From an uncultured Gemmatimonadaceae bacterium (lineage in GTDB: Bacteria; Gemmatimonadota; Gemmatimonadetes; Gemmatimonadales; Gemmatimonadaceae): a stretch of 64,000 nucleotides of DNA. The stretch spans positions 31,474 through 95,473 of the forward strand of contig CAWAGQ010000015.1 in NCBI GenBank assembly GCA_963781585.1, written 5' to 3'. Within the stretch, counting starts at the first letter, position 1. Each line of letters starts with the position of its first letter. Shown piece after piece: positions 1,713 through 43,764 of the stretch. A program made the translations under genes and the position numbers. Below the pieces are notes generated by a model. That model worked only from the letters and a program-made list of their open reading frames with translations, was not told where the DNA came from and did not search any database.

Positions 1713-3298
1713 CGATCGTCGCCGGCGTCGACTTCGGCACGCAGAGTGTGCGCGTGTCGATCGTCGAGCGGGAGACGGGCGTGATCGGGCACGGGGTCTC
1801 GGAGTATCCGGTCAACCGCAGTTCGTCGGATCCCGATTTCGCGACCCAGTCGCACCGCGCGCACATGGACGCGCTGGTGGACGCGATGACGATCGCCCTA
1901 GGTGAGGCGGGAGTGCAAGGCGGTGTGGTGCGGGCGCTGGCCCTCGACACCACCGGCTCGACGGTGATTCCGGTGGGTGAGGGGCTGGTGCCGCTCGACG
2001 ATTACTACCTCTGGTGCGATCATCGCGCGAAGAACGAAGCCGCGCGGATCACCGAGGTGGCGCATGAGGAACGGCTGCCGGCGATCGAGTGGTGCGGAGG
2101 CGTCTATTCGTCGGAGTGGGGGTTCGCCAAACTGCTCCACTGGCTGCGGCACAATCCGGCGAAGCGTGGGGCACTAGTCGCGGCGCTCGAGCACTGCGAC
2201 ATGGTGGCCGCGGTGCTGTGCGGGATCACCGATCCGGATGCCCTCCCCCGCAGCGTGTGCGCCATGGGGCACAAGTGGCTCTGGAGCGCCGAGCTGGGGG
2301 GCCTTCCGCCTAACGACTTTCTGCGCAGGGTGGACCCGCTGCTCAACGGCGCCGCCGCCTGGCTGCGCGGTCGCTACCGGACGTCGAATCATCTGGCCGG
2401 ACACCTCACGACGGACTGGGCGGCGAAGCTCGGTCTCGCCCCCGGGATTCCGATTCCGGTGGGCGCCTTCGACGCGCACTGGGACGCCGTCGGCGCCGGG
2501 ATCGCCGAGGGCGACGTGGTGAACGTGATCGGCAGCTCCACCTGCATCATGGCGATGGCGAGGCGGGCGGAATGCGTCCCGGGCGTGTGCGGGGTGGTGC
2601 GCGGCTCGATTCACCCGGAGTTCATTGGTGTGGAAGCGGGACTGTCGGGCTGCGGCTACGTGTTCGAGTCGATTGCCGGCCGGGCCGGCAGGCCGCTGGA
2701 GGCGATGACGCGCGAACTCGAGCCGTACCGTGCCGGCCAGACGGGACTCCTGCGCCTCGTCTGGGACAACGGCGATCGCACCGTGCTGGTGAACGCGAAC
2801 CTGGGCGGCGTGACGCTGGGATGGCACCTCAACCACACCGCCGTGGACGAGCTGTTCGCGGCGATCGAGGGGACCGCGTTCCACACGCGGATCGTCTTCG
2901 ACCGCATGGCGGAGCACGGCGTCCCGATTGCACGCGTCGTCCATGCGGGCGGCATACCGCAGAAGAACGAGACGCTGAATCGCGTTTACGCGAATGTCCT
3001 TGGCGTGCCGGTACTCATTCCCGAGCGGCCGATCACCAGCCTCGGGTCCGCCATCTTCGCGTTCATGGCGGCCGGAGCCTTCCCTTCTATAGAAGAGGCG
3101 CAGCGGGCGCTCTGTCCTCCCTACCGGATCGTGGCACCGGATGCCGCCGAGCACGAGCGATACGCCCCGCTGCTCGAGATGTACCGCTCGCTCTATTTTG
3201 CGTTGGGGAGTCCGCGATCCGAGCCGCTGGCGACAGGGAACGTGCTGCCGCTCCTCCGGACTATCGCCGCGGAGGCACGTCGCGTGCAGGGCGACTGA
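1709..3298 (+). CDS. araB: Ribulokinase (FGGY carbohydrate kinase)
   Basis: AGVDFGTQSVR N-terminus, DTTGST, WCDHRA, YSSEW, GAFDAH, WDNGDRT, IEGTAF, GGIPQKN motifs. Confidence 0.85.
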   Translation: MTIVAGVDFGTQSVRVSIVERETGVIGHGVSEYPVNRSSSDPDFATQSHRAHMDALVDAMTIALGEAGVQGGVVRALALDTTGSTVIPVGEGLVPLDDYYLWCDHRAKNEAARITEVAHEERLPAIEWCGGVYSSEWGFAKLLHWLRHNPAKRGALVAALEHCDMVAAVLCGITDPDALPRSVCAMGHKWLWSAELGGLPPNDFLRRVDPLLNGAAAWLRGRYRTSNHLAGHLTTDWAAKLGLAPGIPIPVGAFDAHWDAVGAGIAEGDVVNVIGSSTCIMAMARRAECVPGVCGVVRGSIHPEFIGVEAGLSGCGYVFESIAGRAGRPLEAMTRELEPYRAGQTGLLRLVWDNGDRTVLVNANLGGVTLGWHLNHTAVDELFAAIEGTAFHTRIVFDRMAEHGVPIARVVHAGGIPQKNETLNRVYANVLGVPVLIPERPITSLGSAIFAFMAAGAFPSIEEAQRALCPPYRIVAPDAAEHERYAPLLEMYRSLYFALGSPRSEPLATGNVLPLLRTIAAEARRVQGD

Positions 3299-35661: not shown

Positions 35662-36330
35662 TCAGCCGCGCACCGGAGCGCCCGCGGGAATGGCACCCGA
35701 TCGCTCTTCGTCCAGCTCCTCCGCCGCCTCGTGCGTCGAGCGGTAGCAGAGCCGGATCCAGAGGAGCCAGAGCGATGCGTTGACCGTCAGCCCGATCACC
35801 GGCTTCACCAGGGCGATGAGCGTCGCCGCCGTGTACACGAGCGGACCCGCGATATACGCCTTGCGGATGCGCGTCACGGTGGCCTGCTCCACCTCGGGAT
35901 GCAGAAGCCCGCCGCGCACGATGCTCGCGAACAACACGCTCCAGGTCAGGCTGATGACGATGAACGTTCCGCAGTAGAACGTGACCGCCGCGATGGCCGC
36001 GCCAGTCGCCAGATGCTCCGCCAGCACGGCCGTGGGAAAGGGCACGAAGGTCACCATCAGCAGCAGAAAGCCGTTGGCGAACAGGAAGGGGTAGCCCACC
36101 CCACGCACGAGCCGCATGAGCTCGTGGTGATTCACCCACATGATCAGGATGACGAAGAAACTCAGCAGGAACGCGAGATAAGAGGGCCAGAGCGCCACGA
36201 GTCCGGCCCAGAGCGCCGCGGCGCCCCCGGTACCGGCATGGGGGACCTTGATCTCGAGGATGAGCAGCGTGATGGCGATCGCGAACACGCCGTCACTGAA
36301 TGCTTCTGCCCGTTCGGTTCCTTCAGCCAT
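35662..36330 (-). CDS. TMEM175 family potassium channel
   Basis: RAEAFSDGVFAIAITLLIL signature, SFFVI..MWVNHH, FVPFPT. Confidence 0.92.
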   Translation of the reverse strand: MAEGTERAEAFSDGVFAIAITLLILEIKVPHAGTGGAAALWAGLVALWPSYLAFLLSFFVILIMWVNHHELMRLVRGVGYPFLFANGFLLLMVTFVPFPTAVLAEHLATGAAIAAVTFYCGTFIVISLTWSVLFASIVRGGLLHPEVEQATVTRIRKAYIAGPLVYTAATLIALVKPVIGLTVNASLWLLWIRLCYRSTHEAAEELDEERSGAIPAGAPVRG

Positions 36331-37120: not shown

Positions 37121-40100
37121 CTACGGCCTCTGTCCCCCCAACGCCTTGTAGACCGCCACCAGCGCCGTCGCGGCGTCGGTGCGGCCTTGCACAAGCTGGC
37201 TCTGGGCCTGGAGCAGCGTCCGCTGAGAATCGAGGACCTGCAGCAGGTCGGTGAGTCCCGCGTCGAACCGCTGCCTCGCGAGTTCCAGGGCCCGCGTGCT
37301 GGCGCGCACGGCTTCGCTCAGAATCGCGAGGCGCGCGTGCGCACGGTCGTAGGACACGAGCGCCGTCTCGGTCTCCTCGACCGCGCGGAGCACGGTGCCG
37401 TTGTATTGCGACCGCGCTTCGTCGCTCTGCGCCTGTGCTTCTTCGGCGCGGGTCCGCACACGCCCCAGATCGAGCAACGGCCACGACATCCGCACGCCGA
37501 GCTGGAAGCGCGTGGTGCCCGCATTACCTAACGAGTCGAACGCGGTCGCGGCGTAGCCGAGTCCGCCGTCGATCGAGATCCGGGGCAGGTACTCCGACTG
37601 CGCGGCATCCACCAGCAGTCCCTCGGCGGCGGCCGCGCGCTCGGCACCAAGGACATCCGGGCGCCGGCGGACCAGCTCCTGCGGCGTTCCCACGTTCAGC
37701 GAGTCCGGGAGAGCCGGAAGGTCGCCCGGAACAAGCAGCGCCCTCGGCAATGCGTCGGGCGTACGTCCGACGAGCGTGGCGAGACGATTCTGAGTCGCCG
37801 AGATCCGTTTCTCGATGTCGGGGACCGCCGACAGCGTGAGCTGCAGCTCCGCCTTCGCCCGTTCGGTATCGAACGCAGTGCCGCGACCAGCCGACAGCCG
37901 ATCTTCGGTGAGGGCGACGGTGCGTCGCTCGTTCTCAGCGTTGCCGAGGGCCACCGTCAACTGCTGCTGCGCTCCCCGGAGCTCGAAGTAGGTGCGCGCG
38001 ACTTCGGCCGCCATGCTCACCTGCACGTCGTCCAGGGCGTGTTGCGCCGATTCGACGAACGCGCCCTGCGCCCGGACGTTCCGGCGCACCCGGCCAAAGA
38101 TGTCCACCTCCCACGAAGCGTCGAATCCCGCGTCCCAGACGTCCTGTCTCGGGAAGCGATTGCTGAATCCCGGGAACGTGGCGCTCGACAGCTGCTGCCG
38201 CGTTGCCCCGGTGCTGGCGGTGATCGTCGGCGCCAGGTCGAACATCGCCAACCGACGCGCGACCCGGGAATCCGTGAGGCGCGCCTCGGCGACATGGACG
38301 TCGGTGTTCGCCCGCTGCGCTTCGTCGATCAGGTTGGCGAGCGTGGTGTCGCCGAGTTCGCTCAACAACGACCGGGACGGCGACGCAGGAGCATAGTGCG
38401 TGGAGCGCATCAGCTCCGGTGTCGTCGCCACAATCGCTCGCGCCGCGCTGGCGCCACCAGCGGCTTCAGGTGCCCCCTGACCGGCTACCACGGTCGACCC
38501 GGAGTCCGCCGCCGCCGCCCTGGTCTCCGAGGACCCGGTGTGATACGCCGGGGCAACCGCAACCGCCGAGGGTTGGTACGCCGGCGTGCCGACACAGGCG
38601 GTCACGCTCGCGGCCAGCGCCGCCGCCGCCGCTACGCGCCGCGCCCGTAGTCCGCGGATCAGCACGTAGAAGAAGGGCGTGAAGAAGAGACCGAAGAAGG
38701 TCACCCCCAGCATCCCCGAAAACACCACCACTCCCATCACCCGCCGCATCTCGGCGCCGGCACCGCTCGCAAGCACCAGCGGCACAACGCCCATGATGAA
38801 CGCGAACGACGTCATGAGGATCGGCCGCATCCGGATCCGCGCTGCCTCGAGCGCCGCTTCCCACCGGTCGCGCCCCTGACGCTCCAGGTCGCGCGCGAAC
38901 TCGACGATCAGGATGGCGTTCTTGCAGGCCAGCCCCATCAGCACCAGCAGACCGATCTGCGTGAACACGTTGTTGTCTCCCCGCGTGATCCAGACCCCGG
39001 CGATGGCCGAGACCAGACAGAGCGGGACGATGAGAATGATCCCCAGCGGGAGCGTGAAGCTCTCGTACAACGCCGCCAGGACCAGGAACACCAGCAACAC
39101 GCACAGCGGGAAGACGATCACCGCGGTATTCCCGGCCAGCTTCTGCTGATAGGTGAGCTCGGTCCACTCGTAGCCGATGCCGTTAGGCACCGTCTCGCGA
39201 GCCAGGCGTTCGATCGTAGCCACCGCTTCGCCCGAACTGACGCCCGGTGCCGGGCTGCCATTGATGTCGGCGGCCGGATAGCCGTTGTAGTGCGTCACCT
39301 GGTCGGGGCCGTGCGATTGCCCCACCCGCAGCACCGACCCGAGCGGCACCATGTCGCCGTGGGCATTCCGCACCTGGAGCTGGGTGATGTTGTCGGCGGT
39401 CGCGCGGAACGGCGCGTCGGCCTGGGCGATCACCTGATACGTGCGGCCGAAGCGGTTGAAGTCGTTCACGTACGCCGAGCCCAGATAGATCTGGAGCGTC
39501 TGGAACACATCGGCCAGCGCGATGCCCTGCTGCATCACCTTCGTGCGATCGACGTCGGCGAACAGCTGCGGGACGTTGACCTGAAAGCTCGAGTACACAC
39601 CGGCCAGTTGCGGCGTCTGGTACGCGCGGCCCACCAGCGCCTGCGCGGTGGCGTACAGCGCGGAATCGCCCAGACCGGCCCGGTCCTCCAGTTCGAGCTT
39701 GAACCCACCCACCGCGCCCAGGCCGTTCACCGCCGGCGGCGGAAAGACGCCGACGAACGCGTCCTGGATGGACGCGAACTTCATGTTGAGCGCCTGCACG
39801 ATTGCGTCGCTGCTCAGCGCCTTCCCCTTGCGCTCGTCGAACGGATCGAGCGTGATGAACACGACGCCCGCGTTCGGCTTGTTGGCGAAGGCGTTGATCG
39901 ACAGGCCTGGGAACTGCACTGCCGCTTCCACGCCCGGCTGCTCGAGCGCGATCGTCGCCATCCGCCGCAGGACGGCGTCGGTGCGATCCAGCGACGCGGC
40001 ATCGGGGAGCTGCGCGACCGCCACCACGTACTGCTTGTCCTGGCTGGGCACGAAGCCCGGCGGAACGCGCAGCAACCCCACGACCCCGAGTGCGACCAGT

Positions 40101-41764
40101 GCGCCGTACAGGCCAAGGGGAATCGCGGTGCGGCGCACGATGCGACCCACCGCGTTCCGATACCGACCTGACGCGGCCGTGAACGCGCGGTTGAACGGAC
40201 GAAAGAGCCAGCCGAACAGGCGGTCGATCGCCCGCGTCGGCGCGTCGGCCGGCGCACCACGCTCGCGCAGGAGCACCGCCGCCAGCGCCGGAGAGAGCGT
40301 GAGCGAGTTGAACGCCGAGATCAGCGTGGAGAAGGCGATGGTCAGCGCAAACTGGCGGTAGAACTGCCCCGACAGGCCGCTGATGAACGCCACCGGGACA
40401 AACACCGCGCACAGCACGAGCGCGATGGCGATGATGGGCCCGCTCACTTCCTCCATCGCCTTGTGACTCGCGTCGACGGGACTCAGCCCTTCCTCGATGT
40501 GCCGCTCGACGTTCTCCACCACCACGATCGCGTCGTCGACCACGATGCCGATCGCCAGCACCAGGCCGAACAGCGACAGCGTGTTGATCGAGAACCCGGA
40601 GGCCAGCATCACCGCGAAGGTGCCCACGATCGAAACCGGGACCGCCGCCAGCGGGATGATCGACGCCCGCCAGGTCTGGAGGAACAGCACCACCACGATC
40701 ACCACCATCAGGGTGGCCGCCAGCAGCGTCCGGATCACTTCCTGGATGGAATCGCGCACGAAACGGGTCGGGTCGTATACCGCCGACCAGTCGACGCCTT
40801 CCGGGAAGCGCGTCTTGAGTTCGTCCATCGTGGCCCGCACGTCGTGCGACAGCGCGAGTGCGTTCGAGCCCGGTGCCTGGAATACCACGATCGCGGCGGC
40901 CGGCTTGTTGTCGAGCAGCGCGCGGAGCCCGAAGTCCCCGGCGCCCAGTTCCACGCGTGCTACGTCGCGCAGACGCGTGATCTCGCCATTCGCGCCGGTC
41001 TTGACGATGATGTCTCCGAACTCCTTCTCGTCGGCCAGCCGGCCGTGGGCGTTCACCGTGAGCTGGTAAGCCACCGGAGTCGGCATCGGCTGGCCTCCCA
41101 CCACCCCGGCCGCGACCTGCAGGTTCTGTCCGCGGATCGCCTGGACCACATCGGTGGCCGAGAGTCCGCGGGCCGCCACCCGGTTGGGGTCGAGCCACAC
41201 CCGCATCGCGTAGTCGCCGGCGCCGAAGACGATCACCTGCCCCGCCCCGGGAATGCGCGCCAGTTCGTTCTTCACCTGGAGGAGCGCGTAGTTGCGCAGG
41301 TACACCGGGTCGTAGCGGCCGTCGGGCGAGACGAGGTGCACGACCATGGTGATGTCGGGCGACCGCTTCTCGGTCACGACGCCCAGCGCGCGCACTTCGG
41401 CCGGCAGCCGCGGCAGCGCCTGGTTGACGCGATTCTGGACTTCCACCTGCGCCAGATCGACGTCAGTCCCGATTTCGAAGGTGACGCTGAGATTGAGGAC
41501 GCCGTCGGCGGTGGCCGACGACGACATGTACAGCATGTGATCCACGCCGTTGATGGCTTCCTCGATCGGCGTCCCGACGGTCTGCGCGACCACGGTGGGG
41601 TTCGCGCCCGGGTAGATGGCGCGGACCGCGACGGTGGGCGGGGTGACTTCCGGGTATTCGCTGACGGGAAGCGAGACGATGGCAATCAGGCCGGCGGCGA
41701 GCACGATCAGCGACAGCACCACCGCGAAGATCGGCCGGTCGATGAAGAAGCGGGAAAAGCGCAC
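37121..41764 (-). CDS. HAE1 RND efflux permease (MexF/AcrB-like) fused in frame to an OprM/NodT-type outer-membrane factor
   Basis: FFIDRPIFA, GIVVDDAIVVVENVER, KNAILIVEFA, RMRPILMTS in the first ~1040 aa; then RARRVAAAAALAASVTAC and OMF motifs ASWEVDIFGRVRR, P.EL.RRRPDV, YKALGG. Confidence 0.9.
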   Translation of the reverse strand: MRFSRFFIDRPIFAVVLSLIVLAAGLIAIVSLPVSEYPEVTPPTVAVRAIYPGANPTVVAQTVGTPIEEAINGVDHMLYMSSSATADGVLNLSVTFEIGTDVDLAQVEVQNRVNQALPRLPAEVRALGVVTEKRSPDITMVVHLVSPDGRYDPVYLRNYALLQVKNELARIPGAGQVIVFGAGDYAMRVWLDPNRVAARGLSATDVVQAIRGQNLQVAAGVVGGQPMPTPVAYQLTVNAHGRLADEKEFGDIIVKTGANGEITRLRDVARVELGAGDFGLRALLDNKPAAAIVVFQAPGSNALALSHDVRATMDELKTRFPEGVDWSAVYDPTRFVRDSIQEVIRTLLAATLMVVIVVVLFLQTWRASIIPLAAVPVSIVGTFAVMLASGFSINTLSLFGLVLAIGIVVDDAIVVVENVERHIEEGLSPVDASHKAMEEVSGPIIAIALVLCAVFVPVAFISGLSGQFYRQFALTIAFSTLISAFNSLTLSPALAAVLLRERGAPADAPTRAIDRLFGWLFRPFNRAFTAASGRYRNAVGRIVRRTAIPLGLYGALVALGVVGLLRVPPGFVPSQDKQYVVAVAQLPDAASLDRTDAVLRRMATIALEQPGVEAAVQFPGLSINAFANKPNAGVVFITLDPFDERKGKALSSDAIVQALNMKFASIQDAFVGVFPPPAVNGLGAVGGFKLELEDRAGLGDSALYATAQALVGRAYQTPQLAGVYSSFQVNVPQLFADVDRTKVMQQGIALADVFQTLQIYLGSAYVNDFNRFGRTYQVIAQADAPFRATADNITQLQVRNAHGDMVPLGSVLRVGQSHGPDQVTHYNGYPAADINGSPAPGVSSGEAVATIERLARETVPNGIGYEWTELTYQQKLAGNTAVIVFPLCVLLVFLVLAALYESFTLPLGIILIVPLCLVSAIAGVWITRGDNNVFTQIGLLVLMGLACKNAILIVEFARDLERQGRDRWEAALEAARIRMRPILMTSFAFIMGVVPLVLASGAGAEMRRVMGVVVFSGMLGVTFFGLFFTPFFYVLIRGLRARRVAAAAALAASVTACVGTPAYQPSAVAVAPAYHTGSSETRAAAADSGSTVVAGQGAPEAAGGASAARAIVATTPELMRSTHYAPASPSRSLLSELGDTTLANLIDEAQRANTDVHVAEARLTDSRVARRLAMFDLAPTITASTGATRQQLSSATFPGFSNRFPRQDVWDAGFDASWEVDIFGRVRRNVRAQGAFVESAQHALDDVQVSMAAEVARTYFELRGAQQQLTVALGNAENERRTVALTEDRLSAGRGTAFDTERAKAELQLTLSAVPDIEKRISATQNRLATLVGRTPDALPRALLVPGDLPALPDSLNVGTPQELVRRRPDVLGAERAAAAEGLLVDAAQSEYLPRISIDGGLGYAATAFDSLGNAGTTRFQLGVRMSWPLLDLGRVRTRAEEAQAQSDEARSQYNGTVLRAVEETETALVSYDRAHARLAILSEAVRASTRALELARQRFDAGLTDLLQVLDSQRTLLQAQSQLVQGRTDAATALVAVYKALGGQRP

Positions 41765-41794
41765 GGGAGTCTGATCCGGTGAAAAGACGGGCGC

Positions 41795-43048
41795 CTAACG
41801 CCCGGAAGGAAGGAGGGCGACGGTGTTGTCGGACATCGACGCGCGTGAGGCGACGACTTTCATCCCGGGACGCACGCGCTGCAGTCCCTTGACGACGATG
41901 TCCTCGCCGGCCTGGAGCCCGCTTCTGACGACGCGCAGTCCGTCGACGGTCGGGCCAAGTTCCACGGCGCGATACTCGACCGAGCTGTCCGGCTTGAGGA
42001 CGAGCACGAACTTGCGGTCCTGGTCGGTGCCGACCGCGCGGTCGTCGATCAGCGTAGCGGCGTACTGCGTCCCGGCGACCAGCTTGACGCGCGCGAACAG
42101 ACCGGGCGCGAACAGGCGATCGGGGTTTCGCAGCACGGCGCGGACGCGGATCGTGCCCGCCGTCCCGTCGACGCGGTTGTCGAGGAAGTCGATCCGCCCC
42201 TCGTGAGGGAAGCCGGTCTCGTTCGCCAGGCCGATCGAAACGGGGAGTGTACGCGCCCTGGCAGCCGCCGCCTGCTTGCCCGAGACCGACTTGAGGAACT
42301 TGAGATACGCCAGCTCGTCTGCGTCGAAGTAGACGTAGATCGGGTCGAGCGACACGATCGTGGTGAGCAGGGTCGCGGACGGGGGGCCGGCCTGCACCAG
42401 GTTGCCCGGGGTGACTTCCGCCCGGCCCACACGGCCCGAAATCGGCGCGCGGACGGTCGTCCACTCGAGGTTCAGCCGCGCCGTCTTGAGCGCCGCTTCG
42501 GCTTCCGTTACCGCGGCGCTGGTCTCGGCGCGACCGCTCGTCCGCGCATCGAATTCCTCCTTGGAAATCGCCTGCGTGCGCAGCAGTTCCTCGGCGCGCT
42601 GCAGTTGCGAGGCAGCGAGCTCCTCGCGTGTCCGGGCCTGCGCCAGGTCGGCTTCGGCGCGCTCGACCTCGGCCTCGTAGGGCCGCGGATCGATGACGAA
42701 CAGGACGGCGCCCTGCCGCACCGTCGCGCCCTCGCTGAACGCGACGCGCTGGACGGAGCCGGAAACACGCGGGCGCACCTCGACGGAGTTGACCGCCTCG
42801 AACCGGCCGGTAAACTCATCCCAGTCGGCAACCGCGCGACCGATCGCCTGGGCGACGGTCACCTGGGGCGGCGGTGGGGGCGGCGGCGGCGCGTGGCAGG
42901 ATGCCAGAAACAGTAGCGCTGCGGCCGCGATGAGCGTATGAAGGATGAAGCTCGTGCTGCCACGCGGCAGCGGAGCGGGGATGGCCACCGCGGCACGGGC
43001 GGACGCCGCGGGGCGGCGGAATCGGATTGGAACAGTGGGTAGCGTCAT
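41795..43048 (-). CDS. RND periplasmic adaptor (membrane fusion protein, MexE/AcrA-like)
   Basis: LASC lipobox, VEVRPRVSG, LFVIDPRPY, VRAPISGRVG, IDFLDN.VD..AGTI, PGLFARV. Confidence 0.93.
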   Translation of the reverse strand: MTLPTVPIRFRRPAASARAAVAIPAPLPRGSTSFILHTLIAAAALLFLASCHAPPPPPPPPQVTVAQAIGRAVADWDEFTGRFEAVNSVEVRPRVSGSVQRVAFSEGATVRQGAVLFVIDPRPYEAEVERAEADLAQARTREELAASQLQRAEELLRTQAISKEEFDARTSGRAETSAAVTEAEAALKTARLNLEWTTVRAPISGRVGRAEVTPGNLVQAGPPSATLLTTIVSLDPIYVYFDADELAYLKFLKSVSGKQAAAARARTLPVSIGLANETGFPHEGRIDFLDNRVDGTAGTIRVRAVLRNPDRLFAPGLFARVKLVAGTQYAATLIDDRAVGTDQDRKFVLVLKPDSSVEYRAVELGPTVDGLRVVRSGLQAGEDIVVKGLQRVRPGMKVVASRASMSDNTVALLPSGR

Positions 43049-43050
43049 GA

Positions 43051-43110
43051 GGTACCGGTCGGTAACATTGAGTTGCGGGCATGTTACCGATCGGTACCAC
43101 CGGATGTCAA
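43051..43110 (-). promoter_or_regulatory. Efflux operon promoter (TTGACA-N18-TAACAT) with two TetR-type operators TACCG-NN-CGGTA
   Basis: Palindromes at 43053-43064 and 43085-43096 (the latter perfect); together an 18-bp inverted repeat with one mismatch (43051-68 / 43081-98). -35 at 43110-43105, -10 at 43086-43081. Confidence 0.82.
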
Positions 43111-43143
43111 GTCACGATTTTCTGTCGAGAGCGGCGTAACGAA

Positions 43144-43764
43144 ATGACTCGATCCCAGCAGTTGCCTCCCCGGGAGCGTCTGCTCAAGGCGGCGGACGAG
43201 TTGTTTCATCGATACGGCATCCGCGGGGTCGGGGTCGAAGCGATCGCCGAAGCCGCCAGCACGAACAAGATGACGCTGTACCGTCACTTCGCATCGAAAG
43301 ACGAGCTGGTCGCGGAGTGGATCCGCGGTATCGTGGCCGGCAAGGAAGCGATGTGGGAGGAGATCGCCGCGAATCATCCCGGCGATCCGCAGGGCCAGCT
43401 GGTGGAATGGAGCGAACGGGTGGCGCGCAAGCTGGCGCAGCTGGACGAGCGGGGCTCGACGCTCATGCTGTCGCTGGCCGAGCTTCCGGAGAAGGATCAT
43501 CCGGCCCGGAAGATCATCGAGTCGCACAAGATGCGCGAGCACAAGCGGATTCTCCGCCTCTGCCGCCAGGCGGGCTTCCCCGAACCCGAACTCCGCGCCG
43601 ATCAGTTCTTCTTCCTGCTCGAGGGCGCGCACTCGTGCATGCAGTGCATCGGTCTCAAGCGGGTGGGCGAGCAGCTGGTGCGGACCGTGCAGCGATGGAT
43701 CGTCGCCGCCGGCACGCCGGGATCCAGCGCCCCGCTGGCACCGACCGCCACCGACGATCGTTAG
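43144..43764 (+). CDS. TetR/AcrR family transcriptional regulator
   Basis: RERLLKAADELF..YGIRGVGVEAIA..A...KMTLYRHFASKDELV HTH; divergent from the efflux operon. Confidence 0.93.
   Translation: MTRSQQLPPRERLLKAADELFHRYGIRGVGVEAIAEAASTNKMTLYRHFASKDELVAEWIRGIVAGKEAMWEEIAANHPGDPQGQLVEWSERVARKLAQLDERGSTLMLSLAELPEKDHPARKIIESHKMREHKRILRLCRQAGFPEPELRADQFFFLLEGAHSCMQCIGLKRVGEQLVRTVQRWIVAAGTPGSSAPLAPTATDDR

Follow-up and report, generated by a model that had tools for sequence, protein, structure and literature searches.

How can one uninterrupted reading frame supply both the inner membrane pump and the outer membrane channel of a drug-efflux machine? The question is raised by a 64,000-nucleotide stretch of DNA from an uncultured Gemmatimonadaceae bacterium (GenBank assembly GCA_963781585.1, contig CAWAGQ010000015.1, positions 31,474 to 95,473 of the forward strand), which we analysed as a whole and call the window. 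Double-membrane bacteria owe their intrinsic drug efflux mainly to tripartite pumps of the resistance-nodulation-division (RND) type, whose parts are usually separate proteins that meet across the periplasm. In the window, an RND permease is joined in-frame to an outer membrane factor (OMF). Comparison with related sequences indicates that the gene encodes a rare, conserved variant of MexEF-OprN-like pumps, most likely made as a self-splitting polyprotein. We estimate a probability of roughly 0.65 that the junction forms a 13th membrane pass at which Lgt and LspA cut to free the channel.

One frame encodes a complete pump and a complete channel

The fusion open reading frame (ORF) occupies 37121..41764 on the minus strand. 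It comprises 1547 codons, with a GTG start and a stop codon at 37121-37123, and its translation contains no internal stop. This agrees with the earlier note on this DNA, which had described one uninterrupted frame of 1547 amino acids (aa) holding a complete RND permease, an internal signal of lipoprotein type and a complete OMF; Pfam and NCBIfam matches cover both halves. Because the two halves match their families in-frame and at full length, a chance open frame of a high-GC genome is ruled out.

Residues 1-1033 (38666..41764, minus strand) form an RND permease of the HAE1 family, MexF/OqxB-like and complete to the end of transmembrane helix 12 (TM12). Pfam ACR_tran (PF00873) matched residues 3-1037 (E=0), and NCBIfam RND_permease_1 (NF000282) scored 1430.6 bits against a cut-off of 1250, with residues 4-1037 on profile positions 1-1028 of 1029. 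Residues 1-1038 aligned with the full-length solved RND chains 8yr0, 7wlv and 7cz9. The best named NCBIfam model was OqxB, at 1426.8 bits and below its cut-off of 2200; no MexF model was present among the best 25 of the 27 NCBIfam families matching the window protein. The Asp-pair and Lys motifs of the pump appear as ..GIVVDDAIVVVEN.. and ..GLACKNAILIVEFA.., which we take to be the proton-relay motifs of TM4 and TM10. In an alignment of 59 fused proteins, the motif Lys was invariant (K88 of A1) and the Asp pair nearly so (columns 419-420). RND permeases have 12 TM helices and a cytoplasmic C-terminus. A stand-alone pump would end in the cytoplasm after ~1030-1060 residues; the window protein runs on for 514 further residues without a stop.

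The OMF channel domain is OprN-like and covers residues 1135-1547 (37124..38362, minus strand). NCBIfam outer_NodT (TIGR01845) scored 274.1 bits against a cut-off of 210.05, with residues 1123-1544 on profile positions 40-459 of 460. Pfam OEP (PF02321) matched two stretches, the second reaching residue 1543. The best match among solved channels was OprN (5iuy/5azo; 236.7 bits, chain residues 36-441). An AlphaFold model of residues 861-1547 showed four beta-strands (E320-330, E347-360, E535-546 and E557-567) and helices of 65-73 residues, in keeping with the alpha/beta-barrel protomer fold of this family; in the channel part, confidence was mostly >90 as means over 10-residue blocks (range 63-98). 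NodT proteins carry their lipoprotein signal on a separately translated precursor, whereas the signal here is internal.

The junction resembles a lipoprotein signal

The junction covers residues 1034-1056 (38597..38665, minus strand) and consists of an n-region, VLI-RGLRARR, which would lie in the cytoplasm, followed by a 13-residue h-region, VAAAAALAASVTA. The chain between pump and channel reads FFYVLIRGLRARR-VAAAAALAASVTA-C1057-VGTPAYQPS, or, written otherwise, ...FFYVLIRGLRARRVAAAAALAASVTA-C-VGTPAYQPS. It follows the pattern of a lipoprotein signal, with a basic RGLRARR, a hydrophobic VAAAAALAAS and a lipobox, V-T-A-C; the general lipobox pattern is [LVI][ASTVI][GAS]C. Cys1057, the lipobox +1 residue, is the proposed lipidation site and the N-terminus expected after cleavage. 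Its codon lies at 38594..38596 (minus strand), where the earlier note had placed it (38596-38594), and reads TGT; the +2 residue is Val. The C-x-x-P-x-Y motif typical of these channels is retained after the junction Cys. The segment differs from an ordinary signal in position, the Cys being residue 1057 of 1547, and it has neither a start codon nor a ribosome site of its own. Because the C-terminus of an RND permease follows TM12 in the cytoplasm, the junction segment would have to run from inside to outside, as a signal peptide does.

The fusion and its junction are conserved

A genome of the same genus (G001) contains the same fusion with the same junction, at 89% identity. We compared codons 540-1547 of the two genes. 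Synonymous divergence (dS) was 0.41-0.50, and the ratio of nonsynonymous to synonymous divergence (dN/dS) was 0.044 in the pump part, 0.047 across the junction and 0.078 in the channel. Junction codons 1033-1057, including the flanking Tyr1033 and Cys1057, showed 8 synonymous changes vs 1 nonsynonymous change.

More distant homologues were sought by comparing the channel part with proteins of 850-2708 residues, a range that excludes stand-alone channels (~480 aa). All 70 long homologues carried both PF00873 and PF02321, and most had 1500-1600 residues; their source names include Acidoferrales and Verrucomicrobia. A hydrophobic run followed by Cys was present at the junction in 69 of the 70 proteins examined (that of the window and 69 homologues); for P0071, the one protein without it, the match covered only 22% of the query. 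Full-length homologues that keep the lipobox, which the earlier note had proposed to look for, are thus on record. The junction Cys formed an invariant column (C197) in 59/59 aligned fused proteins. Across 68 fused homologues, position -1 was G in 57, A in 10 and S in 1, position -3 was L in 51, and Asp at +2 occurred in none; the median net charge of the n-part was +4. In fused relatives at 50-63% identity, 23-26 residues separate the P-x-F-Y motif from the Cys, nearly the same length as in the window. Short members of fused clusters (P0226, P0236 and P0237) were rejected as separate channels; they are frameshifted N-terminal pump fragments.

A frame of this kind could also arise from an assembly or sequencing error, or could be a dying gene left by a recent inactivating deletion. 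The window genome (G000) is a 17-contig draft with an estimated contamination of 7.19%. However, G001, which was assembled independently, shares the junction while differing at many synonymous sites, the fused relatives at 50-63% identity keep a near-constant junction length, and both halves are under strong purifying selection. We therefore regard an artefact or a decaying gene as very improbable. Three soil/permafrost sequencing runs, no RNA run among them, shared only 0.05 of the sampled words with the window; they gave contigs of other organisms over conserved pump segments, almost nothing across 38041-38573, and none bridging the junction, and so speak neither for nor against it. Taken together, the comparisons indicate that the fusion is genuine and selectively maintained, and that it is conserved but rare.

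The conserved Cys also bears on the kind of cleavage. Signal peptidase I or a periplasmic protease might cut at or after the h-region, or in the linker that follows, in which case the lipobox would be a relic. The end of the h-region, A-S-V-T-A, does resemble an Ala-X-Ala site, the rule for sites of signal peptidase I type. Nevertheless, even fused proteins of only ~35% identity keep the Cys without exception, the split orthologues described below are all lipobox proteins, and the C-x-x-P-x-Y motif is kept. Cleavage by an enzyme other than LspA accordingly seems improbable to us.

The long linker is shared with split relatives

An Ala/Gly/Ser/Pro/Thr low-complexity linker follows the Cys at residues 1058-1134 (38363..38593, minus strand). 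It evolves fast: against G001, dN/dS was 0.34 and there were in-frame indels of 2 and 5 codons. In the AlphaFold model its pLDDT (predicted local distance difference test) was 39-52. The window has 76 residues from Cys1057 to the conserved motif at the first channel helix, whereas most fused homologues have 33-35 linker residues (median 34, n=62). Split Gemmatimonadota orthologues, for example L023, L024 and L033, have a low-complexity linker of 41-113 residues (median 53, n=23). Because these linkers are as long as that of the window or longer, the comparison indicates that the long linker is a trait of the lineage and not of the fusion.

These lengths help to judge whether the chain might remain intact, with a disordered linker of ~76-78 residues spanning the periplasm and a single-chain pump anchored in both membranes. 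The window linker is long and disordered and, by our estimate, could in principle cross the periplasm if fully stretched. Yet the linker is far shorter in most fused homologues, it is no less long in proteins that are not fused at all, and an uncleaved tether would leave the invariant Cys, with its G/A at -1, unexplained. We judge an uncleaved tether slightly less probable still than cleavage by another enzyme.

Split relatives point to an origin by deletion

Relatives within the phylum were sampled in 301 genomes, of which 60 gave a match with E ≤1e-45. Besides G000, there were 43 orthologue-level matches, in frames of 462-613 aa. We classified 32 loci from relatives: one was fused (G001) and 31 were split. 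Of the split loci, 30 have the pump gene immediately ahead of the channel gene on the same strand; the other, L043, had no pump in the stretch examined. One split locus (L028) comes from a genome flagged as unpublished (G086), and no conclusion hangs on it. The nearest named loci belong to Gemmatimonadota, Gemmatimonadaceae and Gemmatimonas metagenome-assembled genomes. No true fusion was found in 19 named GTDB loci scanned; two loci flagged as fused in that scan were rejected, there being no pump in them. A metagenome scan gave 23 loci, 21 of which were classified; all 11 in which the pump end was present were split, with no fused relative among them. Long frames around channel paralogues in G085 (1387 aa) and G294 (1147 aa) were rejected as chance high-GC frames in which pump and channel lie in different frames. 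The earlier note had made its reading depend on close relatives not all having split genes. The same-genus G001 is fused, in line with that reading, while the relatives from elsewhere in the family and order are split.

The split loci (L011-L013 and L023-L050) have a consistent arrangement. In 27 of the 29 scored, the pump stop and the channel ATG share an 8-nt overlap (ATGnnTAA/TAG/TGA), and the same 27 have a GGAGG-like site before this ATG. The remaining two comprise one locus with a 1-nt overlap and one without a pump; two further split loci were left out of the count because the lipobox pattern missed them. The 8-nt overlap with its GGAGG-like site spans two families of the order and constitutes an unusually rigid translational-coupling junction. 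The split pumps have a cytoplasmic tail of ~30 residues after the FYV-x-x-RG motif, and the window pump lacks it.

These loci show what a separately started channel looks like in this group, and so bear on whether the window channel is a nested gene. In such an arrangement the channel would arise by internal initiation, for example at Val1034, and the read-through fusion would be a by-product. The only in-frame start-like codon before the h-region is indeed the GTG of Val1034 (38665-38663), exactly where a normal signal would begin. Its product, M-LIRGLRARRVAAAAALAASVTA-C, would have a textbook 24-residue lipoprotein signal with canonical n-, h- and c-regions. The earlier note, which had seen neither a Met nor a ribosome-binding site at the junction, was right on both counts for the window sequence but missed this GTG. 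However, the 16 nt upstream of the GTG are pyrimidine-rich and contain no Shine-Dalgarno site, in contrast to 27/29 split orthologues scored; the codon is GTC in G001; and 51 of the 68 fused homologues have no Met at the junction. Moreover, there is no stop, so that each ribosome finishing the pump enters the channel and the fusion product is made anyway. The comparison of internal starts covers the window and G001, because the metagenome scan gave no DNA of the fused proteins P0004-P0008. We consider internal initiation as the source of the channel to be about as improbable as cleavage by another enzyme.

The arrangement of the relatives indicates that the fused form is derived from a split, overlapping gene pair. 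Because the split relatives keep the pump tail, the stop, the Shine-Dalgarno site and the ATG, all lost in the window, we propose an in-frame deletion, which would best explain the form seen here. In the ancestral overlapping pair, such a deletion would have removed the pump tail, the stop, the ribosome site with the ATG, and part of the n-region. The remnant between pump and channel would be a lipoprotein signal without a start.

Fusion probably arose more than once

Seven fused proteins of the family were placed in a maximum-likelihood tree of the channel part together with split orthologues, where they occupied three distinct lineages. One fused clade (support 99/96) comprised the window, G001, P0004 and P0005. 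The other two fused lineages, P0006 and P0007 with P0008, were interleaved with the split loci L011 and L012/L025/L026; a quick tree agreed. Forcing the seven fused rows together cost 49 log-likelihood units (approximately unbiased [AU] test, p = 0.015), a test weakened by the fact that the group was named after the tree had been seen. The split genes that lie between the fused lineages still have the ancestral 8-nt overlap. A single fusion would thus call for later restorations that were exact, and several independent fusions appear more plausible. The interleaving of fused with split lineages suggests that fusion has been tolerated repeatedly.

Lgt and LspA may release the channel

We propose the following route. 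The pump would be inserted co-translationally, and its C-terminal arginines would act as the n-region of a signal. The 13-residue hydrophobic stretch would form a 13th pass, oriented from inside to outside, bringing V-T-A-C to the periplasmic face, and the channel moiety would be translocated through Sec behind it. Lgt would then lipidate Cys1057, and LspA would cut before this residue. The freed lipoprotein channel would be carried by Lol to the outer membrane and trimerise there, whereas the pump would retain the stub of the signal as a helix at its C-terminus. Pump and channel would then join the MexE-like adaptor, whose gene lies upstream, in a tripartite machine of the ordinary kind, and a single ribosome pass would supply the two in obligate 1:1 amounts. 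The hard-wired 1:1 stoichiometry claimed in the earlier note is a fair consequence of this layout; the gain may nonetheless be small, since the split relatives are already coupled by the 8-nt overlap.

Release by Lgt and LspA fits best among the possibilities considered, because the Cys is invariant, the junction is under purifying selection, no internal start is conserved, and the pathway genes are present. In the genome, lspA scored 95.9 bits and lolA 61.5 bits, both over their cut-offs, and lgt-like and lolCE-like genes are present as well. We further suggest that an internal, start-less lipoprotein signal serving as a 13th helix and processed by Lgt and LspA is a polyprotein route for an outer membrane protein that has evolved several times; this broader proposal seems to us somewhat better than an even bet, and a little less secure than the cleavage itself.

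Several observations weigh against these proposals. The full-length lgt-like gene scored 101.4 bits, just below the cut-off of 118.9; a lolCE-like gene, at 350 bits, was likewise just below its curated cut-off, and the match for lnt was weak. In the AlphaFold model (residues 861-1547), the junction was drawn as a helix with pLDDT <50 (model residues 186-197), and this segment appeared as a continuation of TM12 rather than as a hairpin, at a confidence too low to decide between the two shapes. For Lgt and LspA acting on a lipobox that follows 12 TM helices and lies ~1050 residues into the chain, we know of no precedent, nor did the literature searched give one. Fused forms are also scarce: among the 150 best channel relatives that an unbiased search drew from 1.84 billion cluster representatives, only 2 had at least 1400 aa, and the orthologues sampled elsewhere in the phylum were all split, apart from G001. 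Given this rarity, the fusion could be merely tolerated rather than advantageous.

If the chain is cleaved as proposed, one translation event would yield a pump with a permanent C-terminal signal helix and a Lol-sorted channel. Lgt and LspA would then act on a lipobox that follows a polytopic protein and lies >1000 residues into the chain, which would widen their known substrate rules, and genome-wide lipoprotein predictors would miss such cases. Annotation pipelines name such genes plain 'RND permease', so the channel goes uncounted. The fusion offers a natural experiment on the stoichiometry and co-assembly of pump and channel. It also illustrates how a translationally coupled pair with an 8-nt overlap may collapse without loss of function.

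Genes around the fusion

The gene for a periplasmic adaptor (membrane fusion protein, MFP), MexE/OqxA-like, lies upstream of the fusion at 41795..43048 (minus strand). It matched NCBIfam RND_mfp (TIGR01730) with 278.3 bits (cut-off 94.9); its best NCBIfam model was MexE, at 458.2 bits and under the equivalog cut-off of 714. The adaptor carries a lipobox of its own (FLAS-C, Cys at about residue 51), directly followed by eight prolines (C-H-A-PPPPPPPP-Q; 42860-42898, minus strand, residues ~51-63). The gap of 30 nt between adaptor stop and pump start contains a GC-rich hairpin with a T-rich tail at 41788-41804 (minus strand). This hairpin, terminator-like by a simple scan, could modulate the ratio of adaptor to pump.

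A divergent gene at 43081..43764 (plus strand) encodes a TetR-family regulator (Pfam TetR_N, E=1.7e-15), and a promoter-like site lies at 43110..43081 on the minus strand. Judging from its position, the TetR protein is likely the local repressor of the pump operon. Downstream of the pump, a 222-aa ORF (35662-36330, minus strand) matches the TMEM175 potassium-channel family (PF06736, E=3.7e-28). The same genome has a second gene for a NodT-type channel (G000:C3:349582-350794; locus L008, ~1420-2719), which is split over two frames. Its N-terminal half is in an ORF beginning at 1420 and open at the locus end, and its C-terminal half is in ORF 2051..2719; it may be a frameshifted gene or an assembly error.

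Comparison with known systems

The full-text literature searched, subscription journals and TCDB/InterPro pages excepted, described neither a natural RND-OMF fusion nor a polyprotein with an internal lipobox. The earlier note had stated that RND-OMF fusions are best known for CusA/CzcA types; the literature searched gave no support for this, and the window pump is of the HAE1 multidrug type, not a heavy-metal pump. A look-up of terms in a review of tripartite pumps (PMC4827864) and a survey of outer membrane fusions (PMC8277102) likewise gave no natural RND-OMF fusion in the parts covered by those terms. Databases already predict such proteins, under names such as 'HAE1 family protein/NodT family ... 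lipoprotein'; because of this, the novelty lies in the biology and not in the sequence record.

The window has the same gene order as MexEF-OprN of Pseudomonas aeruginosa and OqxAB-type systems, namely adaptor, pump and channel with an adjacent regulator. In those systems, however, pump and channel are separate genes, whereas in the window they are one. The window proteins reached none of the MexE/OqxB equivalog or exception cut-offs (458 vs 714; 1427 vs 2200). OqxAB borrows TolC as its channel. By analogy with these systems, the window system is expected to export hydrophobic compounds and to be proton-driven. The split Gemmatimonadota orthologues share 46-63% channel identity, the operon position and the lipobox with the window; they differ in keeping the tail, the stop, the Shine-Dalgarno site and the 8-nt overlapping ATG that the window has lost.

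Two other systems share features with the proposed layout. Hayashi and co-workers reportedly engineered AcrB-AcrA fusions (J Bacteriol, 2016). In these, an extra transmembrane segment links the C-terminal end of the RND pump, in the cytoplasm, to a partner that belongs in the periplasm, and the pump still works, which is like the arrangement proposed for the window; the fusions are artificial, however, they attach the adaptor and not the channel, and they are not meant to be cleaved. The cytochrome b/c1 polyprotein FbcH of Bradyrhizobium is a polytopic protein with an internal signal peptide, at which cleavage frees a second mature subunit. FbcH thus has the layout of the window fusion, a polytopic protein followed by an in-frame internal signal. 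It differs from our reading of the window in that signal peptidase I cuts a signal of the ordinary type, both products remain in the inner membrane, and neither lipidation nor Lol sorting is involved.

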